A DNA stretch of 54,603 nucleotides from Candidatus Omnitrophota bacterium (GCA_022703565.1 JAKLDK010000003.1:1-54603), one strand, 5' to 3'. Shown: positions 13,093-54,603, numbered from the stretch's first letter. Numbers and translations: made by a program. The notes: generated from the letters alone by a model not told the origin.

Positions 13093-13109
13093 GGACAGAC
13101 ACCAATTAT
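13086..13109. repeat. Left arm of a 24-nt inverted repeat (AAAATAGGGACAGACACCAATTAT)
   Basis: Its reverse complement occurs at 13680-13703 with one mismatch. This arm overlaps the TAG stop of the giant ORF. Confidence 0.9.
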
Positions 13110-13134
13110 TTTAATGTAGTCTCTTCATGTTTTT

Positions 13135-13143
13135 TGATATAAT
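13135..13143 (+). promoter_or_regulatory. Extended -10 promoter element TGATATAAT
   Basis: It matches TGnTATAAT and lies 10 nt upstream of ATG 13153, with no Shine-Dalgarno between. This would give a leaderless or near-leaderless transcript. The same 9-mer occurs at 22342-22350. Confidence 0.35.
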
Positions 13144-13152
13144 CAAAAAGCT

Positions 13153-13596
13153 ATGACTAAAAAAATATTATTCTTTGTTTTATTTTTTGCGATTCTTTTG
13201 CAAAATGTTTTTGCTCAAGGGATAAAAGTTGATATGTCCCGTTATAAAGAAGTTTGGGTTGAACGTGACCCGATAAAAGGAATTAATCCTTGGGAGGCAT
13301 TCTGGCTTAAGAAGAATAAAAAGAGGAGGATTACGCAATTTCCTCGCAACAATCCTTTATTCATTGAGTCGGCTGAGGCAGAAATAATAAAAAGTTATTA
13401 CCTTGAGCAAGGATTGCAGGTGATGAGAGTGGATTCCTGGTCATATAAACAGCGTTATGGCGAACAAAAAGAGACTTGCCCAAAAGATGATTGCCCTGCC
13501 GGATACACTTTATTTTTACTTATTCCTCGCACGCAACTTAATAAGGCCCAACAATTAGGATTTAAAGAATTCAATATTCTTGAGCGCAATTTCTAA
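13153..13596 (+). CDS. Small secreted protein of unknown function (147 aa)
   Basis: ORF with an N-terminal signal peptide MTKKILFFVLFFAILLQNVFA|QG. I recognise no family. The gene is flanked by the 24-nt inverted repeats. Confidence 0.6.
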   Translation: MTKKILFFVLFFAILLQNVFAQGIKVDMSRYKEVWVERDPIKGINPWEAFWLKKNKKRRITQFPRNNPLFIESAEAEIIKSYYLEQGLQVMRVDSWSYKQRYGEQKETCPKDDCPAGYTLFLLIPRTQLNKAQQLGFKEFNILERNF

Positions 13597-22373: not shown

Positions 22374-23831
22374 ATGAAAAAAGTAATCTTAATTAGTTTC
22401 GCAGTCCTAACCTTTATTTGTATATTTTCTTCCTTAAGCTTTGCTCAAACTGATGTTCTGCAACTGCAAACCTATTATCCTTCGCCTTACGGCCAGTACA
22501 AACAAATCGAGTCTGATAAGTTAAAAATGAAATCGGTAGATACTTTGCCTTCTTCCTGTGAGAGCGGGGAAATTGTGTTGCAGGCAAGTGCGAGTTCTCC
22601 GGATATTTTACAATATTGTTATGGCTATGATGATTATAATGGCGGAGTTATTGGCTATGAAACATATTGGGCCCCAATAGGTCTTTGGGATCAAAAAATA
22701 AGGTGTGGCTATCAGACGTTCAATACGAACTACTTGTCTTTAAACGACAATCCTGCATGTGTTGACTACGATGGTCATAATGTTCCGCGAAAAGTTGGTA
22801 TCGGAACAGCGGACCCACAAGCAGCGCTTACTCTAGGATCGTTGTCAAATCATAATGACGGAAGTTTTCTAGCGATGGGAGAACTAGATGAAGGAATTCG
22901 TTGGGACGGAGATATTATGAGCGGGCCAGCAACGGCTATGTTATGGTATCCTTCGCAAAGCGCTTTAAGAATTGGGACTTTTGATAATTGGCGTGGTAGC
23001 ATGATCGAAAAATTTTCAACCTTGATTGGTGCCGGATTAGCCCGACCGGCTTTAGGAATGACAGCTGTTGGAACATGCAACGTTGAAACAGCCTATAATT
23101 GGGAAAACTGGGACAGGGCTGATCCTATCTTTGTTGTTGGAAATGGGAGCATAAATTCAATTGGAGCATGCGTAAACACTCCGAGTAACGCACTTACAAT
23201 CCTTAAAAACGGAAACATAGGAATTGGTGCGGAAATAGCTCCAGACAATATATTAGATATAAAATCAGCTGATAGCAATATTGATGTATATACGGTAAAC
23301 GCTACACCTACGATTGCATCGGATATTAATTTAATAAGGACAAGAAATGAGACTGCATCTCCAGGGACTGCAGAGAACGATAGATTGGGAGGAATAAGTT
23401 TTCAAGGGAAGGTTAGTACAAACTTTCGTTCCGCAGCTTTGATAAGTGCTGAAGTAGATGCTGCTATTGGTAGTGGCGTAGATGAGATGCCGGGAAGGTT
23501 GATTTTTAAGACTACGTTTGATGGCGAAGCCGCGCCTCGGGAAAGAATGAGAATTAATAATGCAGGGCTTGTTACAATAGGCGTATTAAATTCTGCCCAA
23601 GGGGATATTCTAGTTAATGGAACTGCCTCAGTAATCGGGACAAATACGGTGCCTGGTATTTTACATGTGGTTAACCAAGTACCAACAGGGAGCGTGAGCA
23701 TGGCTTTATCTCCCGGGAAAAATGTTTCAGCAAATTGTACTGCAGCTGAGTTGGGAACAATTACTTTCACAAACGGGCATTTTTATGGCTGTACTGAAGT
23801 CGGTACGCCTTGGAAGCCACTTGATAACTAA
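22374..23831 (+). CDS. Secreted fibre-like protein (tail-fibre-type motifs)
   Basis: The signal peptide is MKKVILISFAVLTFICIFSSLSFA|Q. Repeated motifs KVGIGTADPQAALTLGS and NGNIGIGAEIAPDNILDIKS are present. The C-terminal GTITFTNGHFYGCTEVGTPWKPL matches the GTIKYISNDFFGYDGTAWKSL motif of the fibre gene at 52451. Confidence 0.65.
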   Translation: MKKVILISFAVLTFICIFSSLSFAQTDVLQLQTYYPSPYGQYKQIESDKLKMKSVDTLPSSCESGEIVLQASASSPDILQYCYGYDDYNGGVIGYETYWAPIGLWDQKIRCGYQTFNTNYLSLNDNPACVDYDGHNVPRKVGIGTADPQAALTLGSLSNHNDGSFLAMGELDEGIRWDGDIMSGPATAMLWYPSQSALRIGTFDNWRGSMIEKFSTLIGAGLARPALGMTAVGTCNVETAYNWENWDRADPIFVVGNGSINSIGACVNTPSNALTILKNGNIGIGAEIAPDNILDIKSADSNIDVYTVNATPTIASDINLIRTRNETASPGTAENDRLGGISFQGKVSTNFRSAALISAEVDAAIGSGVDEMPGRLIFKTTFDGEAAPRERMRINNAGLVTIGVLNSAQGDILVNGTASVIGTNTVPGILHVVNQVPTGSVSMALSPGKNVSANCTAAELGTITFTNGHFYGCTEVGTPWKPLDN

Positions 23832-23906
23832 TGAGATAAATAGGGATGGGTGCTTGAGTGCATTTGGATTTGCTTTCGATTTAGGTGCCCGTAATTCTTA
23901 AATATT

Positions 23907-24428
23907 ATGAAAAAAACAGGCTTTACTTTAATGGAGATTTTGCTGGTTGTGATTGTTGTTTCTATTCTCGCCGGATTTATTCTTCCCAATTATACTAAAA
24001 CTATAAAGATTAACCGCGAAAGAGCGGCGGCAGACAGTTTATCGCTGGTTGTTGAGAGGATTATGGCGTATAAGTCACAGTATAATATGTATCCTAATGC
24101 TGCTGCAATATTTTCAGGGCGCAATGATTCAACATCTTTTCGTAGTTACGAAATTGAAGAAGCTCTTAATTTTTATCCTTTTTATGTTGAAGACTTAATG
24201 GTCTTTTGTTGTTCAGCTAATCCCAATAATATTCATCCAAACGGCTGTAGCCCTAGCCTGCCGGTTCCTACTCCGGCAGCGCCAAAATATACTTGCGTTG
24301 CTGATGATTATAAATATGGATATCAACTTTACGTCACCTTTGATGATGAAAACAATATTATGCGTAAACCATTTTGTAACGGAACCTGCCCTTCCTGCGA
24401 AGCTTCCGGCTGTCCTTGGGAGCCATAA
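23907..24428 (+). CDS. Type IV pilin / pseudopilin-like protein (prepilin-type N-terminus)
   Basis: It carries a class III signal MKKTG|FTLMEILLVVIVVSILAGFILPNY with Glu at +5. The C-terminal half is Cys-rich, with 9 Cys. Confidence 0.8.
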   Translation: MKKTGFTLMEILLVVIVVSILAGFILPNYTKTIKINRERAAADSLSLVVERIMAYKSQYNMYPNAAAIFSGRNDSTSFRSYEIEEALNFYPFYVEDLMVFCCSANPNNIHPNGCSPSLPVPTPAAPKYTCVADDYKYGYQLYVTFDDENNIMRKPFCNGTCPSCEASGCPWEP

Positions 24429-24436
24429 AGTTATTT

Positions 24437-25858
24437 ATGCTTAAAGGCAAATTCAAAAATAAATTAGCAGTTGAGTTATTCCTATTGTTTTTTGCTGTGG
24501 CGGCTAATGCTCAGGTAGAAAATGGAATTAACTATTCTGACGCCGAAACAATAAAGAAAGAAATTTTGCTTGAACAAAGCAAAGCTAGGATTGAAGAGTT
24601 TTACGGTGTCCCATATGATTTGTCTTTTATGCCGGAAGAATATGACCCGTCCGAGCTTATCATTGCTGTTAATGATATTTTGCTTAAACTAGATATTGAT
24701 ATTGCCGGAGTAGCGGTCTTAGGTGAAGGGCTGGCTTTTGATTTTGTTAGGATAGCCAAAACCTCAAAAGTCAATAAAGACGGTAAACTGGCCGAAGAGA
24801 AGTTTGTTTTACTTATCAGTTCCGATTTAGCCGAGAATCCAAACGGGATTATAAATATTATAAAAGAAGAAAAAGCTCCGACAGAAGCAGAAGTAAGGCA
24901 AAATGAAGTTAATCAGATACGGCGGGATACTGTCCGGTCGGTATTAGGCGACAAATATTTATCGGAAGAAGAGAAGAAAAAAATAACGGCGCAAATGGCG
25001 CAAAAATCAGCCGATTTTTTAGAAGGCTTTAAAGAAACCTTGGAAAAGGGAATTAATTTCGGCGATAAAAAGGTAAAAATAAAGATTTATGATTATTACA
25101 AGACTTACGGAGAGATGTTCGCGCGGGAAGATGTTTTGCTCGAGCGTGATTCAATAGAAGCAGTTAAAAAAGATGAGAAACAAAAAGAACAACAGCAAAA
25201 AGAATTCTTCTCCAATGGCAAAGTTAAAACAATAGTAAATTATAAAAATGGTAAAAAGAATGGCTTAAGTGTTGAGTATTATGATAATGGAAATAAGAAG
25301 AAAGAGGAAAAATATAAAGATAACGAACTTGACGGCAAGGTTTTTGAATATTATCCGACAGGAAAGGTAAAGAGTGTTTCGAACTATATAGCTGGCAAGT
25401 TAGAAGGTTTAATCCAGGAATATTATGAAGATGGCGCAGTTTCTAAAACGATGTTTTATTCAAACAATCAGCTTGGTGGGCAGTATAAGAGTTATTATAA
25501 AAACGGCGTTGTTTCCACGGAAGTCCAGTATAAAAATGGACAGCGGGACGGAGCTTATAAGGAATATTTTGAGGATGGAAAAACAAAGTATTTAGAAGAA
25601 TATAAAAATGGCGTTGTTGACGGTATTGCCCGGGAATATTATCCGAACGGACAATTGCAGTATGAAAATTCTTATGCTGGAGGAGCTTTGGACGGAGAAT
25701 CTAAATATTATTACGAGAATGGCGTTATTAAATACTTAACAACCTACCGGGGCGGAAAACTTAATGGAGTAGCCAAAGATTATTCTCAAATAGGTGAAGA
25801 ATGGGCAGAATATTATTACGAAAACGATGTTTTAATTTCAAATAAAAAAAATAATTAA
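24437..25858 (+). CDS. Secreted MORN-repeat (YwqK-like, MORN_2) protein
   Basis: I prefer ATG 24437, just after the pilin stop. The signal is MLKGKFKNKLAVELFLLFFAVAANA|Q. The C-terminal half has about 9 repeats of the form NGK(V)K....Y.NG...G...EYY.NG. Confidence 0.75.
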   Translation: MLKGKFKNKLAVELFLLFFAVAANAQVENGINYSDAETIKKEILLEQSKARIEEFYGVPYDLSFMPEEYDPSELIIAVNDILLKLDIDIAGVAVLGEGLAFDFVRIAKTSKVNKDGKLAEEKFVLLISSDLAENPNGIINIIKEEKAPTEAEVRQNEVNQIRRDTVRSVLGDKYLSEEEKKKITAQMAQKSADFLEGFKETLEKGINFGDKKVKIKIYDYYKTYGEMFAREDVLLERDSIEAVKKDEKQKEQQQKEFFSNGKVKTIVNYKNGKKNGLSVEYYDNGNKKKEEKYKDNELDGKVFEYYPTGKVKSVSNYIAGKLEGLIQEYYEDGAVSKTMFYSNNQLGGQYKSYYKNGVVSTEVQYKNGQRDGAYKEYFEDGKTKYLEEYKNGVVDGIAREYYPNGQLQYENSYAGGALDGESKYYYENGVIKYLTTYRGGKLNGVAKDYSQIGEEWAEYYYENDVLISNKKNN

Positions 25859-25887
25859 TTTATCAAATTTGCCTATATAATAACGTA

Positions 25888-26415
25888 ATGAGAAAAGATA
25901 AACAAGCAATGCCTAAAGAAATAAAAATTGGCCGCGGGGGTTTCACTTTCCTAGAGATTGTTATAGTAATGATTATTCTTGGAGTTTTAACCTCACTAGC
26001 TATTCCGCGTTATCAAGTAATGATTGAGAAATCGCGCACAGTCGAAGGGATAAAAGTTTTATCCGATATTCATCGTGCCCAGGAAAGGTATAGTTACCTG
26101 GCAAATGGGGTTTATTCGACTAATGTTGATGATTTAAATTTGTCATTCTCGCCTTTGGCTTATTTTGAAAATCCAGCAGTCAATAGCGCGGGCGGTACTG
26201 TCTTAAATCCACCCAATTTCCTGGGTTCTATAACCCGTAAAGGTGATTTGTATACTCTTTATATTACTGCAAAGAGTATTTTTTCATGCAAAAAAGGCGA
26301 GGGCGTTGAGGTCGAATATTGCACTATTTTGGGTTTTAGGAAATTTAAAGATTTTGTCGAAGATGAGGGCGAAATTCCGTACATTCCGCAAAATGAAGGG
26401 GGAGAAAACCCTTAG
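25888..26415 (+). CDS. Type IV pilin / pseudopilin-like protein (prepilin-type N-terminus)
   Basis: It reads GRGG|FTFLEIVIVMIILGVLTSLAIPRYQ with Glu at +5. The start could be Met1 or Met8. Confidence 0.8.
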   Translation: MRKDKQAMPKEIKIGRGGFTFLEIVIVMIILGVLTSLAIPRYQVMIEKSRTVEGIKVLSDIHRAQERYSYLANGVYSTNVDDLNLSFSPLAYFENPAVNSAGGTVLNPPNFLGSITRKGDLYTLYITAKSIFSCKKGEGVEVEYCTILGFRKFKDFVEDEGEIPYIPQNEGGENP

Positions 26416-26446
26416 GTATAAACTTTCCATTAAAAAGGAGAAGATT

Positions 26447-26860
26447 GTGAGAAGAGATTATAAAAGACGGTTACTTCTGCACACTAATAAGTTTCAGAAA
26501 TTGATTATTTGGCCGATTATTGCCGCCTGTTTTGTGGCTGGGGCAATGACTTTCTTTTGCTTGGAATATTATTTGGCGTCAATAACCAATACCGGGATAA
26601 TTATTTTTAATTATGATGTCACAGCTTTTGAATGGGCGATACCAACGCTTCTTTTAAGCGTAGCTTTTATATTAATTTTTATTATTTATTGGGTTTTTTA
26701 TATTTCGAGCAAGATTGTTGGCCCCTTTGACAGGATTACCCGCGAACTAGACGAGGTTTTAGCCGGCAAAAGAAAAGGCCCGCTAGGAGCTCGGCAGGGC
26801 GATACGATGTTTGAAGAATTGCTCAAAAGGGTCAATACTCTACTCGAGCGAATCAAATAG
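26447..26860 (+). CDS. Small two-TM membrane protein
   Basis: I prefer GTG 26447, which is preceded by AAGGAG. The tracked longer ORF from 26243 overlaps the pilin gene. Two hydrophobic helices are followed by an amphipathic C-terminal helix. Confidence 0.55.
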   Translation: MRRDYKRRLLLHTNKFQKLIIWPIIAACFVAGAMTFFCLEYYLASITNTGIIIFNYDVTAFEWAIPTLLLSVAFILIFIIYWVFYISSKIVGPFDRITRELDEVLAGKRKGPLGARQGDTMFEELLKRVNTLLERIK

Positions 26861-26938
26861 TTGTTTCGTCTACAAGGGAAAAATACGCCGAATAAAAATA
26901 TATCTTTTGAAGGCCAGCTGAGGAGCGAACTAATATAA

Positions 26939-28852
26939 ATGTTTGGGGTAATTGTCCAGGTTTTTCTCCTTTCAAACCTAATTTCCGCTTTTTTGTATTT
27001 TCTATTTTTCCGTTATTCGTCAATAATCTGGTCGTTTAATCCTGTTGTAAATCTTAAGGATTTTATGCCTGTTATTCAAGCCGCGATAATCCAGGGCCAA
27101 TCCGGAATTGAAACGCAGTTGTTGTACATTATGATGTTCTTAAACATGGGCTTTTCGGTATTTCTATATGCCTTTGTGCTAAAAGTAAAGAATGAAAATG
27201 TCAAAAAGATTTTATTCTTATCGGCTTTTGTCGTGGTGGCTTTATATTTCTTAAAGATAGGTTTTGTGCTTCCGCCGTCGAGAGTGGAGGAAATGTTTTC
27301 CAGGATAATGCTAACCTTTTTAATGTTAGTATTATCAATAATTTTATTTTTAAATAAAAGGCGTTGGATAACCGAGATCTTTTTTGCGGTGGTGTTATTT
27401 CTTGTGTGTTTTATTCCTTACCAAGGTTATTCTTTGCGGGACTTAACTTTTATTCTTACCCCCGCACTTAGAATTATAAACGGTTATAGCCTCAACGAAT
27501 CTTATTTTGAGTACAATTACTTTTTGTCTCTTTTAGGGGCATTATGGATAAAACTAAATTTATCGATTTATTTCTTTCCTATCCTAGGGCAAAGCGCTTA
27601 CTATGCTTTTTTGCTTGGGCTTTATTTTTTCGCGAAAAAGTATTTTTTGGATAAGCGCCTGGCGCCGCTTTTAGTTTTAGCTTTAATTGTTTTTAAGATG
27701 TATGGAATCCATCTTTCTAACACGGGAACTTTTCAATGTACTCCTTTGCGGCTTGATATGTGGTTTCTGTTGGTTTTATTCGCCTATTGGAAAGGATTAA
27801 AGCATTGGTCTCTGGGGATTATCTTAGGGTTGCTTATTATGTTTCATTTTACCTTCGGAATTATATATTCAGTTACGTATCTTATTCTCCTTGGCATCTT
27901 ATTCTTTATCGATATTTACGGCCGGCAAATCAGTTTGTGGCAGAGGGTAAAAAAGCATTGGTTACTTTATAATAAGAATATAATTATTATATTTTTTTCT
28001 TTCTTGATTTATAAAATATTTCTTTCTCCTAATGCGGCTGAGGCGGCTTTTTCATATCAAAAATACAATCTCGGGTTTTTACGAATTTCTATTAATTCCT
28101 TCTATTGGTATTTCCCGGGTATTTTCAGCTCAGTTATTATTCTTCTTTTAAGAAATAGGCCTGCCCGAGAAGAAAACATTACAACAGATGAGCAACCCAG
28201 ATTATCGACAAAATATTTTCATGTGGGTATTTTTCTTGTCCTTTTGGCAATCGGTAATTCAATTTATTTCTTTGGAAGAAGTTACGAGGGAAGTATTCAG
28301 GCGATTGCCGGTTCGCTATTTTTTGTTTTATATTTATTCCTTGACCTAGTGCAATTCGAATTGAACAAGAATCAAAAATCTATAGTGTATAAAGTTATTG
28401 TCCCCAGTTTAGCGGTATGTTTTATTTTAATCCTTAGCTACTTTTATGCGGGAAGAATAATAGATCGGCTAAAATATCAAAAAACATTTATTGCTAAAGG
28501 GCGCTCTTCTTTTGCCGAGTATTATCGAAATCCCATCGACCTTCATATCGAGGAGGTTAAAAGAATAACGCGCGGGAGCGAGAAAATAACGTTTATAAGT
28601 AAAAATGATTTCTTTTATTATTATGACGGCGGATATGTTCCCCAAGGATTCAATTGTTTTACTTATAGTTTTCTTCTTAAAAAAGATGCTATAGCTTTCT
28701 GGGAATCGCAAATAAATAATGGCTATTATTTGGTTATTCCGGTTAATGAATTCCAATTCTTTATTGAGGTGCTTTTGGGGATAAATCATGACAATGTTAC
28801 TACGCGCACGCCTAATTTTATCGTGATTTATAATCCGGAAAAAGTATTTTAA
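26939..28852 (+). CDS. Large polytopic integral membrane protein (12 or more TM helices) with a C-terminal soluble domain
   Basis: The 637-aa ORF is dominated by hydrophobic segments. I recognise no catalytic motif; a GT-C-like or polymerase-like role is only a guess. Confidence 0.6.
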   Translation: MFGVIVQVFLLSNLISAFLYFLFFRYSSIIWSFNPVVNLKDFMPVIQAAIIQGQSGIETQLLYIMMFLNMGFSVFLYAFVLKVKNENVKKILFLSAFVVVALYFLKIGFVLPPSRVEEMFSRIMLTFLMLVLSIILFLNKRRWITEIFFAVVLFLVCFIPYQGYSLRDLTFILTPALRIINGYSLNESYFEYNYFLSLLGALWIKLNLSIYFFPILGQSAYYAFLLGLYFFAKKYFLDKRLAPLLVLALIVFKMYGIHLSNTGTFQCTPLRLDMWFLLVLFAYWKGLKHWSLGIILGLLIMFHFTFGIIYSVTYLILLGILFFIDIYGRQISLWQRVKKHWLLYNKNIIIIFFSFLIYKIFLSPNAAEAAFSYQKYNLGFLRISINSFYWYFPGIFSSVIILLLRNRPAREENITTDEQPRLSTKYFHVGIFLVLLAIGNSIYFFGRSYEGSIQAIAGSLFFVLYLFLDLVQFELNKNQKSIVYKVIVPSLAVCFILILSYFYAGRIIDRLKYQKTFIAKGRSSFAEYYRNPIDLHIEEVKRITRGSEKITFISKNDFFYYYDGGYVPQGFNCFTYSFLLKKDAIAFWESQINNGYYLVIPVNEFQFFIEVLLGINHDNVTTRTPNFIVIYNPEKVF

Positions 28853-46094: not shown

Positions 46095-46867
46095 TTTTGA
46101 GCCTGAGCGATAATATTATTCAAAAAAGATTTAATCGAGCCTCCGGCAGTTACGATAAATGCTGTGCTTTCCATTCTGTTGCTGCCGACGGAATCATTAA
46201 GAAAATCGACAGAAGAAATAATTACGGGCGTATTTTGGAGGTTGGGCACGGTACGGGATTGCTTACAGAGAAACTATCTAAAATTATTAGGTCTCAGAAT
46301 ATTTACGCAATTGATTTCTCGGATGGAATGGCGAAAATCCTGAGGGATAAGAAAATCAATTGTAACATTATTCAGGCTGATTGCCAGAAGCTTCCTTTCG
46401 AGGACTCGTATTTTGATTTAATTGTTTCAAATTTTACTTATCAATGGGTTCCAAATTTAAGCGTGGCTTTTAAAGAAGCAAATCGTGTTCTTAAGAAAAA
46501 CGGACAGGTAATTATTAATATGTTTGGGCGTAATACATTTAAAGAATTGTTTTATGCCCTTACGCAAGTTGGCATGGCTAATGAATTTATATTAAGGTTA
46601 AGGACGTACGAAGAGATAAAAACGATAATTAACAAAGAAGATTTTGGCAAGGTAAACATTTGCGTAGAAGAGAAGAAGGTTTATTATCCATCAGCGCAAG
46701 AGATGCTGCGTTGGATAAAGAATATCGGCGCAAACGGGTTAAAGCGTGATTTCTATTTTGGGAGGCAATTATGGCAAAAGTTTTGTGAAAGGTATGAGGC
46801 CTTATATCACGAAGAAGCAGGTATTTATGCGACTTTTGAAGTGATTTCAATTGAGGCGAAGAAATGA
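46091..46867 (+). CDS. bioC: Malonyl-ACP O-methyltransferase BioC (class I SAM methyltransferase)
   Basis: The SAM motif is ILEVGHGTGLLT and LPFEDSYFDLIVSNFTYQWV is present. It shows ATGA start/stop coupling to both neighbours. Confidence 0.8.
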   Translation: MILSLSDNIIQKRFNRASGSYDKCCAFHSVAADGIIKKIDRRNNYGRILEVGHGTGLLTEKLSKIIRSQNIYAIDFSDGMAKILRDKKINCNIIQADCQKLPFEDSYFDLIVSNFTYQWVPNLSVAFKEANRVLKKNGQVIINMFGRNTFKELFYALTQVGMANEFILRLRTYEEIKTIINKEDFGKVNICVEEKKVYYPSAQEMLRWIKNIGANGLKRDFYFGRQLWQKFCERYEALYHEEAGIYATFEVISIEAKK

Positions 46868-48888
46868 AAAAAGGGATATTTATAACAGCGACGGACACGG
46901 GAGCCGGAAAGACATTAGTTAGCGCAGTCTTAGGGCTTATCTTGCAAAGAAAAGGATTGAAGGTTGGATACCTTAAGCCGGTACAATGTGCCGGCAATGA
47001 CGCAACTTTTGTTAAGAATTTATTAAAGCTCGATGATGATATAACTGTTATCAACCCGTATTATCTTAAAGAGCCATTATCACCACACTTGGCACTGCGC
47101 CGGGCGAGAAAAAAATTTGATTTTAGAAGAGTTAAGGAGTCATTCTGCAAATTATCGGAGAAATATGATTTGGTGATTGTTGAAGGTGCCGGCGGATTAA
47201 TGGCGCCAATTAGAGAAGGTTATTTTGTTGCTGATTTAATAAAAGATTTAGGGCTAGAGGTTGTAATTGTTGCCCGTAAGGGGCTGGGGACAATAAATCA
47301 CACAACCTTGACGCTAAAGCAAGCCGAAGAATATGGATTGAAAATAAGCGGCCTAATTTTTAATAGCACACATTGTAGCTCAACCGGCATTGCCCAGAAG
47401 ACTAACCCAAAAGAAATACAGAGGATAAATAAAACAAAGGTTTTAGGAATATTGCCTTATTTCCGAGTAAGAAAATATGATGAAATTGTTAAAAAAGTTG
47501 AGGATTCATTAGATTTAAAAGCAATGTTGAGTGACTCTGAATGCGAAAACACAAAGGCGCTTGAAAGTTTAGATAAAAAACATCTTTGGCATCCATTTAC
47601 GCAGATGAAAGATTGGGCCAAAGAAGAGCCCTTGATAATTGAAAAAGGCGAAGGAAATTATTTGATTGATACCGAAGGCAAGCGGTATCTCGACGGGGTA
47701 TCTAGTTTATGGGTCAATGTTCACGGACATTGCAAGAAAGAAATTAACGACGCAATCAAGAAACAATTAAATAAACTCGAGCATTCAACGCTTTTGGGCC
47801 TTTCCAATGTTCCGGCAATAAAATTGTCTAAAAAGCTTGTTGAGGTTGCGCCAAAAGGCTTAAATAAAGTTTTTTATTCCGATAGTGGTTCAACTGCTGT
47901 CGAAGTTGCGTTGAAAATAGCCTACCAGTATTGGCAGAACATTGGGGAAAATAAAAAGACACAAATTGTGCACCTGGCCAATTCATATCACGGGGATACT
48001 TTGGGCTCAGTAAGCGTCGGAGGAATTGATTTGTTTCACAAGGTTTATCGGGGACTGATATTTAAAACAATAAAGGTTGATTTTCCTGACTGCTATCGTG
48101 CGCCTAAAGGCAAGAAATACCCTGCTTATGCATTTGAATGTGTTAGAAATATTGAGAGATTATTTTCGAAAGATTCGAAGAAAATAGCGGCATTTATCGT
48201 CGAGCCGATTGTGCAGGGCGCAGCCGGAATGATTGTTTGGCCGAAAGGAATATTAAAAGAAATAGAAAGGATTTGCCGGAAAAATAATGTTCTGTTAATC
48301 GCCGATGAGGTGGCAACCGGTTTTGGCCGTACCGGAAAGATGTTTACTTGCGAACATGAGAATGTTCGTCCGGATATTATGTGTTTAGCTAAAGGACTTA
48401 CCGGCGGGTATTTGCCTCTGGCGGCGACATTAACAACAGATGAAATATACAATGGATTCTTATTTGATTATAAAGAACAAAAAACATTCTTCCACGGGCA
48501 TACTTACACCGGAAATCCTTTAGCTTGTACTGCGGCATTGGCGAATATTGAAGTATTTGAAAAAGAAAAAACTTTAAATCATATGCAGCCAAAGATTAAA
48601 TATTTAGAAAAAAGATTAAAAGAGTTTCTCCCGTTAAAACACGTCGGGGATGTTAGAAATAAAGGATTTATGGTTGGAATAGAATTGGTTAAAGATAAGA
48701 AAACAAAAGAACCATTTCCTTGGGAAGCAAAAGTTGGAGTTAAGGTTTGTCGGGAAGCTAGGCTTTATGGCGTAATTTTACGACCCCTGGGGAATGTTAT
48801 CGTGTTGATGCCACCTTTGAATATTAGTATCAAAGAAATAAATTGTTTGATAAGCGCGGTGTTGAGAGTTGTCAGGGAGCTTTATTAA
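46864..48888 (+). CDS. bioDA: Fused dethiobiotin synthetase (BioD, N-terminal) and adenosylmethionine-8-amino-7-oxononanoate aminotransferase (BioA, C-terminal)
   Basis: Residues 1 to about 215 read FITATDTGAGKTLVSAVLG...VEGAGGLMAP, which is BioD. Residues from about 235 to 674 read LWHPFTQM...YLDGVSSLWVNVHGH...DEVATGFGRTG...LAKGLTGGY, which is BioA. Both lie in a single ORF with no stop. Confidence 0.88.
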   Translation: MKKGIFITATDTGAGKTLVSAVLGLILQRKGLKVGYLKPVQCAGNDATFVKNLLKLDDDITVINPYYLKEPLSPHLALRRARKKFDFRRVKESFCKLSEKYDLVIVEGAGGLMAPIREGYFVADLIKDLGLEVVIVARKGLGTINHTTLTLKQAEEYGLKISGLIFNSTHCSSTGIAQKTNPKEIQRINKTKVLGILPYFRVRKYDEIVKKVEDSLDLKAMLSDSECENTKALESLDKKHLWHPFTQMKDWAKEEPLIIEKGEGNYLIDTEGKRYLDGVSSLWVNVHGHCKKEINDAIKKQLNKLEHSTLLGLSNVPAIKLSKKLVEVAPKGLNKVFYSDSGSTAVEVALKIAYQYWQNIGENKKTQIVHLANSYHGDTLGSVSVGGIDLFHKVYRGLIFKTIKVDFPDCYRAPKGKKYPAYAFECVRNIERLFSKDSKKIAAFIVEPIVQGAAGMIVWPKGILKEIERICRKNNVLLIADEVATGFGRTGKMFTCEHENVRPDIMCLAKGLTGGYLPLAATLTTDEIYNGFLFDYKEQKTFFHGHTYTGNPLACTAALANIEVFEKEKTLNHMQPKIKYLEKRLKEFLPLKHVGDVRNKGFMVGIELVKDKKTKEPFPWEAKVGVKVCREARLYGVILRPLGNVIVLMPPLNISIKEINCLISAVLRVVRELY

Positions 48889-49337
48889 TATCCGCAGTCA
48901 GGAATTCCACCCGGGCCTGCACACAAAGGAGGGCTTATTACATCTACGCCGCAAGAACAACCTAGTCCATTGCTAATTGAGGCGCAGTCAACGGGCCTGC
49001 AGGGATAAGCTATATAGCTCCAGGGAACATCTGATCCCGAAGCATTCTGCCACTTAGTAAGCGGCGTTAATTTTATTTTTAATGCCGTATTAATAGTCTC
49101 TAAGTCGTCAAAGTCAATATCCTCATCACTACAGGTATTATTTATCTTGTATATTCTACTTGCGGCTTGAATAGAAATAAGGTCGGACTTGATTTTCATT
49201 ATATCCTGTTTTTTCTGTAAATTACTGAAGCTGGGAATGACAAAAGCAGTAATAATTCCGATAATAAGAAGGGTAATCATTAATTCGAGCAAAGTAAAAC
49301 CGTAATTATTTTCACCAGTCTTAATTTTAAATTGCAT
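48885..49337 (-). CDS. Type IV pilin / pseudopilin-like protein (prepilin-type N-terminus)
   Basis: MQFKIKTGENNYG|FTLLELMITLLIIGIITAFVIPSF has Glu at +5. The C-terminus is Cys-rich. It overlaps the upstream beta-helix gene by 11 nt. Confidence 0.8.
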   Translation of the reverse strand: MQFKIKTGENNYGFTLLELMITLLIIGIITAFVIPSFSNLQKKQDIMKIKSDLISIQAASRIYKINNTCSDEDIDFDDLETINTALKIKLTPLTKWQNASGSDVPWSYIAYPCRPVDCASISNGLGCSCGVDVISPPLCAGPGGIPDCGY

Positions 49338-50990
49338 CTATTGGAATATCTCCGGTTTTATAAGTCGACGAATTGTCCTGTTTTTCATAAGCGCCCATGT
49401 CAACATAGGGTGGTGTCCCAATTCCAGTATTCGTTGTGTTTAAATCATCATACCGCGGGAGATTTTCAATATCAAGAGTAGGTTCATAATTTCCATCCGC
49501 GCAATCAATTGCTCCGGAATAGTTTCCTAAATGGTAATCGTTATTTGCCGCATTGATAAAATTAGGATTTGCATTCTTATTTCCAGTGCCGTTGTAACCA
49601 CCTTCAATGTCGCTATAAGTGGCTGTCAATGTGCCGGAGCCGCTGGCAACATTTATTTCATCGCTTGTATTACCCCAGACGATGGAATTTCTTAAATAAA
49701 CAGTATTTACTGGAGTAGAAGTAAGCGCGATTCCATAGTTGGTATTGTTCGCGATAGTTGAGTTTGCAATGTTTACTGTTGATCCGCCAATAACTACAAT
49801 TCCTTTGTTGGAATTATGATCAACAACTAAGTTATTTATTGTGGCATTAAATCTGGCTAGCCAAATACCGCTGCCGCCATTGGGTGCGGTATTGTTTCGA
49901 ATTGTGGTATTAGTTAATGTGAAGCTGTTAATTGTGCTAATATTATCAAGTGTCCAAATTCCTCCGCCGGTACTATAAGCTGTATTTGAGGCGATATTGC
50001 AGTTTGAAATAGTTGGGTTGCTATTATCAGCGATTGCAATTCCACCGCCCATTCCGGCTGATGAGTTCCCGGTAACTGTGCATCCGTTAATTGTTGGTGA
50101 AGAGCTCCAAATAAAAATTCCACCGCCCAAAGTACGGTTCCATTTGTAGTTTGATTGCCAGTAACAGTAATATTTTGAATAGAAGGAGTTCCTCCCGTCA
50201 TATAAATTCCGCCGCCGAGTCCGCCATTTGCAGTATTGTTTTGACTTTGTACATTAGAAATTACAGCATTAGAATATGCAAGCTGTATTCCGCCTCCGCC
50301 ATTTGCGTTATAGGAAGTATTGTTTCTGACAAGGCAGTTTCTTATCGTTGGAGATGCGTTACGAGCAGTTATTCCTCCTCCGCCAGGTCCGCCATGAGCA
50401 ACTCCGTCCCAGTATCCGTTTTGAATAGTAAAACCATCGAGAATTGTATTTGTTGTCACTCCTTCAGCGAAAATTACGACACTGCTGGTATGCGTTCCGT
50501 TAATTATTGTTGTTGCTGAGCCTTGAGTGCTTCTAACTGTAATAGTTAAATTAGGAATAGAAATATCTTCATTATATGTGCCCGGGTCAGCGACCACCTT
50601 ATAGTTATTTTGGGTACTGTTAATACCGGCTTGGATTGTATTATAACATCCGACGAGGTTATCCCCTTCGTCATATACTTTTACCGGGCCGGAACAAGTA
50701 TAGAATTTCTTCCAGGCTTTTATAACTCCGGAACCGGAAGGAATCAACATTCTAATCCTTGTTGCTTGAGGGTGGCTAGGGTCAACCAAAACTACTCCAT
50801 AGGTTGTATTGCCTTTGCTTATGCGCAAAGGAGAAGTCGGCGTTACTTCTTCGCAGGCAATAGGAGTTATTTGCCCGTTATCATAAGCTCGTAGCCCAAT
50901 ATCAATATCGGCAGCTTGCGAATATGCGCATGGTATTAACAGAAACATTAATATTGTTAATGCAATATAAAAAGATTTAGTTTTTATCAT
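49327..50990 (-). pseudogene. Secreted right-handed parallel beta-helix repeat protein, interrupted by a -1 frameshift near 50128-50135
   Basis: Tracked ORFs 49914..51008 and 49327..50130 overlap in different frames. The upstream frame carries signal MIKTKSFYIALTILMFLLIPCAYSQA and the repeats N..A..GGGI...SP.I.NC up to ...VTGNQTTNGTV. That repeat pattern continues only in the other frame (LGGGIFIWSSSPTINGCTVTGNSSAGMGGGI...). The remaining 70 aa of the first frame look like out-of-frame translation. Confidence 0.7.
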
Positions 50991-51037
50991 AAGTCTGTCC
51001 TTAGCCATAATTGACCGGCAACCGGAGAAGCTGGGTC
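50989..51037. repeat. 49-bp exact direct repeat, copy 1
   Basis: ATAAGTCTGTCCTTAGCCATAATTGACCGGCAACCGGAGAAGCTGGGTC is identical to 52454-52502. This copy overlaps the start codon region of the beta-helix gene. Confidence 0.97.
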
Positions 51038-51084
51038 CAATATATTAAGTTTGTTTCTATGTTTTTGCAAGAGTTAACGAATAA

Positions 51085-52386
51085 CTAGTACGGTGATATT
51101 TTTAAAGCTTTGATCTCAGAGGCCGTACGTACGCGTATTTTAGAAGCACTTATATCATTTACGTCGACTAAAACAATTCCTCGAACAGCATTGTTTTTGT
51201 CTGCAATACGCAAAGGAGATAATAATGTTCCCAATGGCTCGGCGCAAATAGTTTTAGTTGTTGAATTCTCATAAATACGCAATCCGATATCGACGCAAGA
51301 TGATTGTGTTTTATATGCATATTTAAGCCTCTGGCAACTACTCCCGCAAGATACCATATAACCAATGTGGACACCATTTGTGCTATCGAGATCAATAGAG
51401 GTGTTATAAGTAGAAGTAGACTCGATAGTTTCTGTTGGCCAATTTGGATAAAGATTAGTTGTGTATTTTAATCCATTCTTGGCATAGCTAATATGGACTT
51501 TCCCGCTTGAGTCAAGAGCTATTGAGCTAGATGCTGTTCCGGCATTAGTTGCAAGAGTTACGGGAGTATTCCATGCGCCAGAAGGAGCATTTGTTATGTA
51601 TTTGATTGTAGAGATATAAGCAGTTTGCAGTACATTGTAAACAATATGTACATAACCGTTTTGGTCAATTTTGATGTCTGGTTTGTATGCTAATGCTACA
51701 GAATTATCTATTGTAATTGGAGCGTTCCATCCGGAACCATTATTTTTGATATATTTTAATCCGTTAACTCCATCATAAGCTATATGCGGAAAATTGTTTG
51801 AATCAACTGCTATGGCAGCATATTTGCCAATTGGATTAGGGTCTATTGTTGCAGGAGTACTCCAGGTGCTTCCGATTGCACTCATATATTTAAGCCAGTT
51901 TTCGTTATAATTTATATCGTTATATGAATAGCAAAAGTGTTTCTTTGAAGTTGAATCTATTACCAAAGAAGATCCCCGGACAAAATTTCTTACGTCAGAC
52001 ATAATATTCGTGTTAGCCCAACCGTCAATTTCTGTCTTATGAAAAGCAGGAATCGTATTATGATTTGCAATAATGTGGGAGAAATTATTTTGGTCCAAAG
52101 AATAAGACCAAAATGAGAAATCGCTTACTGGTTCTTGCAGTGGCCATTGATTGCCTGCTTTTTTCATAATGTAAAGCTTATCCGAACAACCGCTAGTATG
52201 CCATCCTGCTGCTAAACGCGGGATGTTTGAATTATCAATGGCAATGTCGACCTCGTTAATACCATAAGCGGTACAGTTATCATCCCAGGAGAGAGGAGTT
52301 ATTATTTCCCAGCTGAAGGCTATACTACTGAATGATATTAAAAAGAAACAGATAAATGATAGTATAACTAATTTAATTTTATTCAT
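51085..52386 (-). CDS. Secreted beta-propeller-like repeat protein with a C-terminal domain shared with the beta-helix protein
   Basis: The signal is MNKIKLVILSFICFFLISFSSIAFS. It has at least 4 repeats of the form (A/S)I(A/D)(V/L)DS.....HI.Y.....LKY....G.W. The C-terminal DIGLRIYEN...SPLRIADKNNAVRGIVLVDVND..ASKIRVRT..EIKALK is homologous to residues of about 27-95 of the beta-helix protein. Confidence 0.7.
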   Translation of the reverse strand: MNKIKLVILSFICFFLISFSSIAFSWEIITPLSWDDNCTAYGINEVDIAIDNSNIPRLAAGWHTSGCSDKLYIMKKAGNQWPLQEPVSDFSFWSYSLDQNNFSHIIANHNTIPAFHKTEIDGWANTNIMSDVRNFVRGSSLVIDSTSKKHFCYSYNDINYNENWLKYMSAIGSTWSTPATIDPNPIGKYAAIAVDSNNFPHIAYDGVNGLKYIKNNGSGWNAPITIDNSVALAYKPDIKIDQNGYVHIVYNVLQTAYISTIKYITNAPSGAWNTPVTLATNAGTASSSIALDSSGKVHISYAKNGLKYTTNLYPNWPTETIESTSTYNTSIDLDSTNGVHIGYMVSCGSSCQRLKYAYKTQSSCVDIGLRIYENSTTKTICAEPLGTLLSPLRIADKNNAVRGIVLVDVNDISASKIRVRTASEIKALKISPY

Positions 52387-52450
52387 AATGGGTCTTTTTA
52401 TTTATAACTTAATAAGTCAAAGTATAATTTCTTAGTTATCTCATAAGCTT

Positions 52451-54603
52451 TTATAAGTCTGTCCTTAGCCATAATTGACCGGCAACCGGAGAAGCTGGGT
52501 CGCTGGTTCTTGTTTCAATAACTATGCCACCGCTGAATGTTTGTTTTGCACTCCAAGTATTTGCGTTTCCTACATTTAATCCTAAAGTGTAAGGGCTAAC
52601 AGCAGTTCCTGCTCCGCTTCTGGTTAAAGTTGTATTAGTTGCGTTTGTTATTTCGTTGCCGATTATTCCATCAACTTCAGTAAAGGTTGAAGCTGTTAAA
52701 GATTTCCAGGCCGTTCCGTCGTATCCGAAGAAATCATTGCTTATGTATTTTATTGTACCGGCATTATTTGAAGTAGTATTGCCGATTTTTACTGCGCCAG
52801 TAACTTCAAGTTTTTCTACTGGAGTTGATAACCCAATTCCAACTCGCCCACCATTTGTTATGACAACATCGTCATTATTTGAATAGTTTAGTTTTATTTT
52901 CCCGCCGTTACCTTTGGAATCTATTTTCAAATATGTGTCAGTCGTGGTGATTGTGGAATTTGAACCATTAGAATTCAAAAGCAGAGTGGGAACACTATCT
53001 GTTGGTGCAGCGATGGTAAATTGAGCATTTGTGGCAGTGGTTGTTCCAATGCCAAAATGTCCGTTTTCTGTAATAACCATCCTGTAGGCTTCGGCGCCGG
53101 CCACACCTCCCCAGATTGAAAATGCATTATTAATTTCCAAAGGATATTGATGTGAGCGCATTTCCCAAATTGCATGGTTACTATTAACATCTTCCAGCCG
53201 TAATGAAGTAAAATCATCATTCAGGGCATTAACAATATGCATATTTGCGGCAGGAGAAGATGTGCCAATACCGATTTTGCCGATAGTGTCTACGAAAAGG
53301 CCTTCATTGTTGCCATTATTAGAAAGGAAGAATCCACTTAATTTTATATTTTCTGTGGCGGTATGGTTTCCTAGATTATCTCCGACACCTTGAGGAGCAT
53401 CAGAAGTACAGTTAACTACATTACCGTCGGAAGTACACCATTTATCCGCATTTAAAGTATTAACTTGCGGGTCAACTTCTGCCAAAGCTGGGGCATCGGA
53501 AGTACAATTAACCGCACTACCGTCGGTAGTACACCATTTACCGGCAGTTGTTATATTGCCAACTTGCGGGTCAACTTCAGTTAAGCTAGGTGCAGGGGAC
53601 ATACAATTAATGACTTCTCCGTCAGAAGTACACCACATGTCTGCACTTAAAGTATTAACTTGTGGGTCAATTTCGGCAAAAGAAGGTGCGCTCCAGCTTA
53701 AAATGCCACTGCCGTTAGTTGATAAGAATTGGCCATTTGCGCCATCAGATGAAGGCAATGTCCAAAGGCTGTTTGCCGAGAGTGCATTGGGAGCTTTAAA
53801 CCCGATATAATTGTCGTTTGCTTCATCAAAAAATTGAAATGGTTTAGAGCCAAAAAGCTTTAGTTCGCTTGTTGGAACCAAGCTGATATTACTATTAGAG
53901 AACAAGATGCTATTTGTTGAGCTTCCGATTAAAAGGAATCCACCGGTAGCATCTCCAACTCTCAGCGCGCTATTAACGTCGAGTTTAGCTGCCGGAGAAG
54001 TTGTTCCGATACCAACGTTTCCAAAAGGGCTGACAATAATGTTCCCTGAAGAAGTTGTTTTAAGGGTTAAATCACCATTAGTTTTATTAATAACTGAAAC
54101 ATAATCTAATTGCGGCTCAATATCAAATGTGTTTCCATTTAAATCTAAATCTAGTCCGGCTAAGTAGCTAGCGCCGCTTGGGGCTTCGGATGTACAGTTA
54201 ACAGCACTTCCGTCGGTAGTACACCATTTACCGGCAGTTGTTATATCTCCTACTTGGGGGTCGATTTCACTTAAAATAGGTGCGTTTTGGTTACAATCTA
54301 TTGCATTTCCGTTTTCGTCGCTTGTACACCATTTGTTAGCAACTAAACTGTCAACTTGAGGATCTGATTCAACCATTGTTGGCGCGTCAGTTGTACAATT
54401 GACAACATTACCGTCGGAAGTACACCATTTATTAGCATTTAAAGTGTTAACTTGCGGGTCAATTTCGGATAAGACGGGAGCGTTGGTCGTACAATTGACA
54501 ACATTACCGTCTGAGGTACACCATCTATTCGCTGTCAGGCTGTTAACTTGCGGGTCGGTTTCGCTTGTTATTCCTTGCTGGTCTGCACGGCAAGTATAGC
54601 TTC
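52451..54603 (-). CDS. Fibre-like surface protein with Cys-pair repeats; 5' end truncated by the window
   Basis: The tracked ORF starts at 54376, but the same frame stays open to nt 54603 (…SYTCRADQQGITSETDPQVNSLTANRWCTSDGNVVNCTTNAPVLSEIDPQVNTLNANKWCTSDGNVVNCTTDAPTMVESDPQV…). It contains repeats of about 26 aa, DPQV..L...KWCTSDG..VNCT..AP. Tail-fibre-type motifs are present: GNVGIGTTSPAAKLDV, KIGIGTSSPAANMHI, RVGIGLSTPVEKLEV and GTIKYISNDFFGYDGTAWKSL. Confidence 0.8.
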   Translation of the reverse strand, partial: SYTCRADQQGITSETDPQVNSLTANRWCTSDGNVVNCTTNAPVLSEIDPQVNTLNANKWCTSDGNVVNCTTDAPTMVESDPQVDSLVANKWCTSDENGNAIDCNQNAPILSEIDPQVGDITTAGKWCTTDGSAVNCTSEAPSGASYLAGLDLDLNGNTFDIEPQLDYVSVINKTNGDLTLKTTSSGNIIVSPFGNVGIGTTSPAAKLDVNSALRVGDATGGFLLIGSSTNSILFSNSNISLVPTSELKLFGSKPFQFFDEANDNYIGFKAPNALSANSLWTLPSSDGANGQFLSTNGSGILSWSAPSFAEIDPQVNTLSADMWCTSDGEVINCMSPAPSLTEVDPQVGNITTAGKWCTTDGSAVNCTSDAPALAEVDPQVNTLNADKWCTSDGNVVNCTSDAPQGVGDNLGNHTATENIKLSGFFLSNNGNNEGLFVDTIGKIGIGTSSPAANMHIVNALNDDFTSLRLEDVNSNHAIWEMRSHQYPLEINNAFSIWGGVAGAEAYRMVITENGHFGIGTTTATNAQFTIAAPTDSVPTLLLNSNGSNSTITTTDTYLKIDSKGNGGKIKLNYSNNDDVVITNGGRVGIGLSTPVEKLEVTGAVKIGNTTSNNAGTIKYISNDFFGYDGTAWKSLTASTFTEVDGIIGNEITNATNTTLTRSGAGTAVSPYTLGLNVGNANTWSAKQTFSGGIVIETRTSDPASPVAGQLWLRTDL
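52454..52502. repeat. 49-bp exact direct repeat, copy 2
   Basis: Identical to 50989-51037. Here it encodes the last 16 codons (DPASPVAGQLWLRTDL) and part of the stop codon of the fibre gene. Confidence 0.97.

Follow-up and report, generated by a model that had tools for sequence, protein, structure and literature searches.

A tail-fibre-like gene and two signal-peptide proteins sharing a small module in a Candidatus Omnitrophota contig: a possible split surface fibre with exchangeable tips

The 54,603-nucleotide (nt) contig of a Candidatus Omnitrophota bacterium examined here (GCA_022703565.1 JAKLDK010000003.1:1-54603; this whole stretch is called the window) ends in a group of minus-strand genes, locus B, encoding a fibre-like protein, two proteins with signal peptides that share a short module, and a prepilin-type protein. 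What kind of apparatus do these genes specify? No named apparatus corresponding to locus B was found in Pfam, NCBIfam, PHROGs, PDB or the searched literature. The answer that we prefer, with slightly more belief than doubt, is that locus B is one cellular example of a conserved gene cassette, in which a stalk derived from phage tail fibres would receive separately exported tips by way of the shared module. A first-pass annotation made from the sequence had listed four co-directional minus-strand genes, and all four are present (Table 1): the minus strand of 48885-54603 contains five open reading frames (ORFs) that resolve into four genes, the beta-helix gene being broken into two ORFs by a frameshift. 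The fibre-like ORF with Cys repeats, the propeller-repeat protein with its hydrophobic N-terminus and the prepilin overlapping its upstream neighbor by 11 nt were all as that annotation had them. Anaerobic digesters are the source of the DNA sequencing runs in which the locus is found, and metatranscriptome contigs cover the pilin, propeller and fibre genes.

Table 1. Positions of the features of locus B and of locus A, a second fibre-containing region of the window.
Feature	Coordinates	Strand	Remarks
Fibre gene	52451..54603	-	ORF open to contig end, no stop; 716 codons visible
Cys repeats of the fibre, seven of ~32 aa, DPQV..L....WC.SDG..V.C	53435..54556	-	two blocks: 54221-54556, 53435-53668
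Conserved C-terminal tail of the fibre, FSGGIVIETRTSDPASPVAGQLWLRTDL	52454..52534	-	proposed socket for the module
Cargo 1, secreted lectin-like beta-propeller (predicted), module C-terminal	51085..52386	-	433 aa
Module copy 1, C-terminal in cargo 1	51088..51297	-	CVDIGLRIYEN..SPLRIADKN..GIVLVDVND.SASKIRVRT..IKALKISPY
Cargo 2, signal peptide, N-terminal module and right-handed beta-helix	49327..51008	-	frameshifted
Module copy 2, N-terminal in cargo 2, directly after the signal peptide	50700..50912	-	
Prepilin-type protein, Cys-rich C-terminal domain	48885..49337	-	PF07963 E 5e-7; TIGR02532 E 6.2e-7
Locus A region	22374-28852	+	fibre, then pilins, MORN-repeat protein, membrane protein
Locus A fibre	22374..23831	+	signal peptide, TYYPSPYG head, GIGT loop, terminal G.I.F....F.G....W..L motif

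The key element is the module of about 70 amino acids (aa) that the propeller protein (cargo 1) and the beta-helix protein (cargo 2) had been noted to share. This similarity survives proper alignment, the two copies being 40% identical over 70 aa in BLASTP (E 1e-9), and the family consensus is DIGLRxYDG..IACEP..SPLRI.KNG.YGI.LVD..AS.IRI.TSSGIKAL, about 67 aa long. A homologue search with the propeller protein recovered related propellers, and a subtilisin, that likewise carry the module at their C-terminus. A profile built from six copies matched 1056 representatives of clusters formed at 50% identity with E<=1e-3, of which 590 reach E<=1e-10. There are several conspicuous features. First, among the best 150 representatives the module lies at the extreme C-terminus in 134 of 159 matches (~84%); about nine full-length matches are N-terminal after a signal peptide, as in cargo 2, and a few are internal. 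Second, its partners in Pfam are diverse, including Peptidase_S8/subtilases, M10/matrixin-like and M26-like peptidases, fn3, F5_F8_type_C/discoidin, Laminin_G_3, Kelch and RCC1 propellers, Beta_helix and FGE-sulfatase, among others, with no single Pfam family common to all module proteins. Third, an N-terminal hydrophobic segment is present in 93 of 115 complete module representatives and in both cargos of the window; the module proteins of phages lack one. Finally, a model of copy 1 made with 76 family sequences is a seven-strand all-beta domain (pLDDT 94.8, pTM 0.80) for which Foldseek finds no similar fold in PDB (best E 2.1, TM below 0.3). No model in Pfam, NCBIfam or PHROGs matches the module, a literature search with the motif strings found no paper, and a survey of the Omnitrophota makes no mention of such fibres.

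The fibre gene runs off the end of the contig, so that its 5′ part and the N-terminus of its product are lost. The only other database record of the locus, a shorter Joint Genome Institute (JGI) contig that is 100% identical, adds no fibre 5′ sequence, and a scan of a genome collection with the propeller protein, aimed at completing the fibre gene, gave no match. What is visible of the fibre is a mosaic of the Cys repeats, three GIGT..P..(K)L.V capping-loop motifs and a G.IKY....FFGYDG..WK.L motif. It is similar to phage tail fibre and spike families, with tail-fibre matches in PHROGs to phrog_9942 (E 1.1e-9) and phrog_18345 (E 5.3e-9); its only match among PDB sequences is the Bdellovibrio fibre Bd2133 (8OND), at E 7.7e-4 and over the GIGT..P..KL.V loops only, and Pfam shows no Peptidase_S74 domain. 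The fibre ends in GGIVIETRTSDPASPVAGQLWLRTDL, which includes a conserved tail of ~27 aa with the consensus GGxxIETRTSDPxxPxxGQxWLRTDL. In a tail profile derived from 33 other fibres the window tail aligns to positions 20-46; the E-value of 2.3e-17 is that of the whole protein and includes two matches to the half of the profile that contains the GIGT loop, at fibre residues 198-221 and 589-605. The gene also contains an internal DNA duplication of 105-nt segments, 690 nt apart and 86.7% identical. In the assembly of one run the two copies are fused (joint 54209 to 53520), and the number of fibre repeats may therefore vary or be mis-assembled.

Comparative genomics of the cluster, which had been put forward as a check, reveals that the order of fibre then module gene is kept almost throughout. 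Loci were gathered by the module alone (matches: 96 metagenome, 21 genome), giving 21 genome loci and 79 metagenome loci, of which 65 non-redundant module genes have enough upstream sequence to be evaluated. A tail-bearing gene lies within 300 nt upstream on the same strand of 40 of these, and within 3 kb upstream of 19 more; six were scored negative by script, and three of the six (L010, L012 and L019) proved positive on inspection, so that at least 62 of the 65 evaluable loci have a tail-bearing fibre upstream of the module gene. The gap between the two genes is typically about 20 nt. In the reverse direction, a module gene directly follows the tail gene in 38 of 49 cases. In the other 11 the next ORF is small, with a hydrophobic N-terminus in ten (the exception being L097), and the module gene lies just beyond the intervening small ORF in nine loci (L053, L075, L076, L081, L082, L088, L093, L097 and L103). 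The inserted small proteins of eight of these (all except L097) have one N-terminal transmembrane helix and fall into two unrelated types, 148 and 251 aa at full length. No other conserved neighboring gene family was found in the related loci, which lie among housekeeping genes without recurrent phage neighbors. By their record titles they come from Pirellulales, Phycisphaerae, Sedimentisphaerales, Patescibacteria, Saccharibacteria, Parcubacteria, Elusimicrobia, a Clostridia-labelled metagenome-assembled genome (MAG) and Nanoarchaeota/Woesearchaeota (DPANN), and Omnitrophica-labelled MAGs also carry the cassette.

The fibres of these cassettes vary from 117 to 1147 aa, and the relatives have signal peptides and several unrelated N-terminal types; the last ~45 residues are nearly invariant, with the extended consensus ..KLEV.GG.IKATGGLIIETRTSDP..P..GQxWLRTDL. 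In the two closest full-length relatives of the propeller protein, one of them in an Omnitrophica-labelled MAG, the upstream gene abuts and encodes a mini-fibre of 106 or 165 aa. This mini-fibre has a signal peptide, contains both a TITTYYPAPYGVY motif and a GIGT loop, and ends GGLIIETRTSDP..P..GQIWLRTDL, as the window fibre does. The window itself, by profile search, has exactly one tail and two modules, with the fibre ending ..IETRTSDP..P..G.xWLRTD and module genes following on the same strand, and it therefore fits a pattern of one fibre and then two cargo genes; a further locus (L018) has one fibre and three cargos. The fibres of L032 and L038 have collagen GXY repeats that run straight into the tail, which implies a fibre trimer; both fibres (L032 370-1860, L038 2-682) have RCC1-like N-terminal parts. 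Tail and module also occur in one polypeptide. A 59-kb contig (L008) contains an array of fibre/cargo pairs, including a 590-aa protein in which a head, the tail, a repeat domain and the module are naturally fused (11573-13345), and a second natural fusion, P0250, joins tail, cargo and module. The L008 array, which comprises at least three fibre/cargo units at 7106-13345, with frameshifted or truncated copies as well as the full fusion, looks like a diversifying set of paralogues; it lies a short way downstream of a type IV pilus pilM/pilO/secretin cluster.

Relatives of both elements are found in true phages. Scans of IMG/VR and of GenBank phages with the module found no match, and a search with the tail recovered two viral contigs (L110 and L111) as well as tailspikes from two Bacillus phages, Stills and Staley. 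The uncultured phage L110 encodes an 828-aa tail spike (phrog_12123, score 1037) ending ..GGLTIETRTSDPASPNIGQIWLRSDL, and the next gene encodes a 213-aa protein without a signal peptide, in which a divergent module (..TTPLRIRTKDGIKGI) precedes a tip domain. Phage Stills has the same type of shaft and tip in a single polypeptide, joined as WYRTD-SSKA-PVRVMTSEGVK. Its shaft aligns with that of L110 up to ..GQVWYRTD (45% identity, E 2e-43), and after four residues come PVRVMTSEGVK and the tip, which matches the L110 tip protein over its residues 53-212 (43%, E 2e-43). The occurrence of the fused and the split forms places the tail-module boundary at the shaft-to-tip joint of a phage fibre. The phrog_12123 spikes of Stills, Staley and L110 are true homologues of the tail and of the last strands of the module; they differ in being virion proteins without a signal peptide and with a single dedicated tip, whereas the cellular module serves many cargos and is more conserved than the phage version. 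The second contig, L111 (from IMG/VR), has a high G+C content and encodes a terminase, a 63-aa ORF with the tail at its end, and a 1267-aa repeat protein terminated by the module (E 1.4e-10). This pair (5890-10767) is odd and minimal: the 63-aa protein is little more than the tail, and the long protein is made of short Ser/Thr/Gly/Val-rich repeats.

The propeller gene begins 64 nt downstream of the fibre gene. Its product has a hydrophobic N-terminus, by inspection and a hydropathy rule, and the AlphaFold model is all-beta and roughly 7-bladed (pLDDT 82.9). Among PDB folds it is closest to the PHL/PLL lectins of Photorhabdus, which have seven blades (E ~1e-11, TM 0.66-0.72), with sequence identity of just 10-14% despite the fold match, and BNR_4 (PF15892) is found in homologues of the propeller protein. 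On its predicted structure cargo 1 would be a lectin-like propeller.

Cargo 2 starts 76 nt after cargo 1. A parallel beta-helix with a signal peptide had been predicted, and Pfam identifies the helix, a right-handed one (Beta_helix PF13229, E 3.3e-19); the single intact gene did not hold up. The coding sequence is spread over ORFs 49914-51008 and 49327-50130, which overlap and lie in different frames, with the frame switch near 50125-50135 on the minus strand. These represent one frameshifted gene, because a single alignment crosses the junction of the read-through sequence in 105 of 119 homologues. An independent low-depth Logan contig of a digester run has the identical frameshift sequence, and the frameshift is therefore present in the DNA as sequenced, at low depth. 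It could reflect a pseudogene or a sequencing error. A programmed frameshift was considered and rejected: the conserved GGG motif precedes the sole T-rich run, GAATTTTTATTT, and there is no proper X XXY YYZ heptamer in frame. A simple loss of 1 nt is the more likely event. No close beta-helix orthologues were found for comparison of gene order, the best match being 30-39% identical, and none of the beta-helix homologues found by the search carries the module; homologous passengers in other lineages bear other address tags, namely the C-terminal domain (CTD) of the type IX secretion system (T9SS) and dockerin. Judged from sequence, such tags would fit a docking role for the module, short of proving it.

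How might these parts work together? We propose that the fibre is a Sec-exported, phage-tail-fibre-like and probably trimeric stalk at the cell surface, variable in length and composition and constant in its tail, and that the cargo proteins, each a variable working domain plus the ~67-aa all-beta module, would be exported separately. We infer physical docking of the module, whatever the stoichiometry, onto the C-terminal tail of the fibre, which would thus present, at its far end, exchangeable tips for binding or degradation, an arrangement comparable to a phage fibre bearing a separately encoded tip adhesin. The likely role would be adhesion to polysaccharide, the presumed ligand, on another cell or particle, perhaps with its local degradation; an attack on another cell is possible. 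We further speculate from the motifs that the tail may correspond to the first half, and the start of the module (IGLRVYDGT) to the second half, of the G.IY.D....F.YDG..W motif that is common in such fibres, in which case tail and module start would pair by strand addition as a split beta-hairpin; the resemblance would be consistent with docking without proving it. What has been observed comprises homology, a gene linkage that is near-obligate, natural fusions in cells and phages, the export signals of the cellular proteins, the fold predictions, the lectin-like and beta-helix character of the two cargos, and the split and fused phage forms. A broader claim, that tail and module form a universal plug and socket of phages, bacteria (Planctomycetota, Omnitrophica-labelled MAGs, Elusimicrobia and the candidate phyla radiation, CPR) and DPANN archaea, arming trimeric fibres with interchangeable and horizontally exchangeable lectin, protease or glycan-degrading tips, is tentative, and we would put it at somewhat less than an even chance.

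Several points weigh against a docked, two-part fibre. First, the binding of tail to module is deduced rather than directly observed. Second, the cellular fusions keep the module at the far C-terminus, so that it is not simply a substitute for a covalent link. Third, the signal peptides were called only by inspection and a crude hydropathy rule, and in diderm hosts the proteins would still have to cross an outer membrane. Fourth, no tail gene is seen near the module genes of L013, L029 and L109, and one of the two module genes of L052 is without one, its direct upstream neighbor not being a fibre. Finally, the window copy may be partly decayed, because the fibre N-terminus is missing and cargo 2 is frameshifted.

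Two other explanations of the module deserve consideration, both of them unlikely in our estimation. It could be a sorting or anchoring tag that acts independently of the fibre, like the T9SS CTD or S-layer homology (SLH) domains, with the fibre no more than a surface protein of the same regulon. A short all-beta domain that sits at the extreme C-terminus in ~84% of matches and has very diverse passengers, some of whose beta-helix homologues carry a T9SS CTD or dockerin elsewhere, has much of the look of such a tag. The module matches neither PF18962 nor TIGR04183 nor any NCBIfam sorting-domain model, however, and it is not restricted to T9SS lineages, occurring as it does in CPR bacteria and DPANN archaea with completely different envelopes and in phage virion proteins; it is sometimes N-terminal or internal, and its near-obligate linkage with a tail-bearing fibre gene would be unexpected for a general tag. 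The second explanation, which is compatible with docking and about equally improbable, is that the module is a chaperone-like assembly domain that aids C-terminal trimerization of the fibre, the attached domains being secondary. Phage fibre genes are likewise followed by assembly or adhesin genes, and the near-universal order of fibre and partner, the ~20-nt gaps and the split phage version (L110) are in keeping with this. Yet no assembly-protein family in Pfam or PHROGs is similar to the module, its last strands are a permanent part of the Stills fibre, and the enzyme and lectin cargos, with arrays of two (the window) or three (L018), suit display better.

That locus B is instead a prophage tail-fibre module, with its remaining genes past the contig end, is very improbable: the fibre matches tail-fibre PHROGs, tail and module occur in true phages and the upstream side is unseen, but the downstream side adjoins the biotin operon with overlapping stop codons, Pfam shows no phage gene anywhere in the window (the check for flanking phage genes that had been suggested found no structural, packaging or lysis gene in the visible 48.8 kb, and mutS/mutL and accA besides the biotin operon), both cargos have signal peptides unlike the phage versions, the IMG/VR scan with the module was empty against 96 metagenome and 21 genome matches, and the related cassettes sit among housekeeping genes without recurrent phage neighbors.

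The docked, two-part fibre resembles several known systems without coinciding with any. In the T2-type gp37/gp38 fibres and in the fibre and Tfa proteins of Mu and lambda, a partner gene lies directly downstream and its product acts at the C-terminal tip of the fibre. The cassette shares with these the downstream partner gene, the modularity and the proneness to exchange; it has no sequence or profile similarity to them in Pfam or PHROGs, and its partners are large enzymes or lectins with signal peptides, encoded in cellular genomes of several phyla and of archaea. The cohesin-dockerin system of cellulosomes and the T9SS CTD follow the same logic, a small conserved terminal tag on many secreted proteins, but there is no homology, and the module would be received by the end of a trimeric fibre rather than by a scaffoldin or a secretion pore. 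In function, the nearest described systems are the phage fibres with separately encoded tip adhesins and the mosaic adhesive trimer (MAT) fibres of Bdellovibrio bacteriovorus (Caulton et al. 2024, PMC10769870). In MAT fibres a Sec signal peptide precedes a beta-rich N-terminal domain of ~130 aa that is conserved, the stalk is a trimeric beta-helix or prism with capping-loop motifs, and the tips are borne on the same chain, as an S74 chaperone(-protease) or a built-in adhesin domain (PMC10769870). Fibres of both kinds, MAT and cassette, are encoded by cells, bear signal peptides and are mosaics resembling phage tail fibres; they also have in common GIGT-type capping-loop motifs and adhesive ends that vary. 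The locus B fibre, by contrast, has neither a built-in tip nor an S74 domain in its visible part, its N-terminus lying beyond the contig end; it ends in the 27-aa conserved tail, and the tips are separate genes with their own signal peptides and the module.

The statement that locus B could not be mapped to a described apparatus stands insofar as no named system was found, and requires amendment in that the clear phage tail-fibre relatives make the system a cellular derivative of a phage device and not one without precedent. What is apparently new is the split, plug-in form of a tail-fibre-like surface fibre, its wide distribution and the adaptor pair, which seems to be undescribed. The window copy is incomplete, and its value is as a pointer to the module family. 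Cell-encoded tail-fibre-like fibres have only recently been recognized as devices for prey or host recognition, as in the Bdellovibrio MAT, and the locus appears to point to a broader two-part version that links fibres to hundreds of secreted binding and degrading domains. The attachment machinery of CPR bacteria, DPANN archaea and the organisms of Omnitrophica-labelled MAGs is largely unknown, and if the system operates as proposed it could underlie the attachment of ultra-small episymbionts and predators to their hosts. Were docking true, two short signatures would suffice to find adhesins and surface enzymes of uncultured symbionts, host-range swapping between cells and phages would have a testable model, and a small natural protein-protein coupling pair, of possible use in display, would be at hand.

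The first-pass annotation had proposed a modular system of fibres, pilin and a carbohydrate-binding or lytic component that extended to locus A. The modular surface fibre is upheld, with the shared module as its key; the pilin and locus A are not part of what is conserved. The prepilin of locus B has the prepilin cleavage/methylation motif, with Gly-1, Phe+1, Glu+5 and then a hydrophobic helix (cleavage falls between NYG and FTLLELMITLLIIGIITAFVIP), and its ORF overlaps that of cargo 2 at 49327-49337. All NCBIfam equivalog scores are far below their cut-offs (e.g. GspG, 40.3 against 88.85), and neither PilB nor PilC nor a secretin is encoded in the window. Across ~577 kb of related loci (100 loci) there is one pilin-like ORF, on the opposite strand, and L008 is the only one of the closer relatives in which type IV pilus genes lie within several kb. 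The pilin as a conserved cassette component was thus rejected, there being no conserved pilin neighbor in related loci, and its membership in the system is doubtful; a lineage-specific link is possible because a pilin directly follows a fibre locus twice, in locus A and in locus B.

The fibres of loci A and B match the same tail-fibre PHROGs and share the short motifs noted earlier, with pairwise BLASTP E-values of 0.046 for GTI..F.G..WK.L and 0.085 for GIGT. The locus A fibre is without the tail, and no module gene follows it in a profile search. Locus A as part of the same system was therefore rejected, having neither tail nor module and similarity at the level of motifs alone; it is a distant fibre relative only. 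Its TYYPSPYG head motif also starts the cassette mini-fibres of L002, L005 and L008. The remaining plus-strand genes of locus A encode two pilins, one at 23907-24428 whose C-terminus is rich in Cys and one at 25888-26415. Between them lies the gene of a MORN-repeat protein (24416-25858) with weak similarity to an adhesin family of Leptospira, and beyond the second comes that of a large polytopic membrane protein (26939-28852).

The remaining window is ordinary chromosome, including mutS, mutL, accA, rlmN and birA-bioF-bioH-bioC-bioDA. The biotin operon ends in a fused bioD-bioA gene (46864-48888, plus strand) whose 674-aa product combines dethiobiotin synthetase with a class III aminotransferase; its stop codon overlaps the convergent prepilin stop by 4 nt (48885-48888), leaving no intergenic space for terminators. 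At the opposite end of the window, a giant plus-strand ORF (16-13092, 4358 aa) has an unusual combination of domains: an ATP-binding domain like that of pyruvate-phosphate dikinase is joined to one resembling the phosphohistidine domain of glucan-water dikinase, and there is also a weak match to ResIII helicase.

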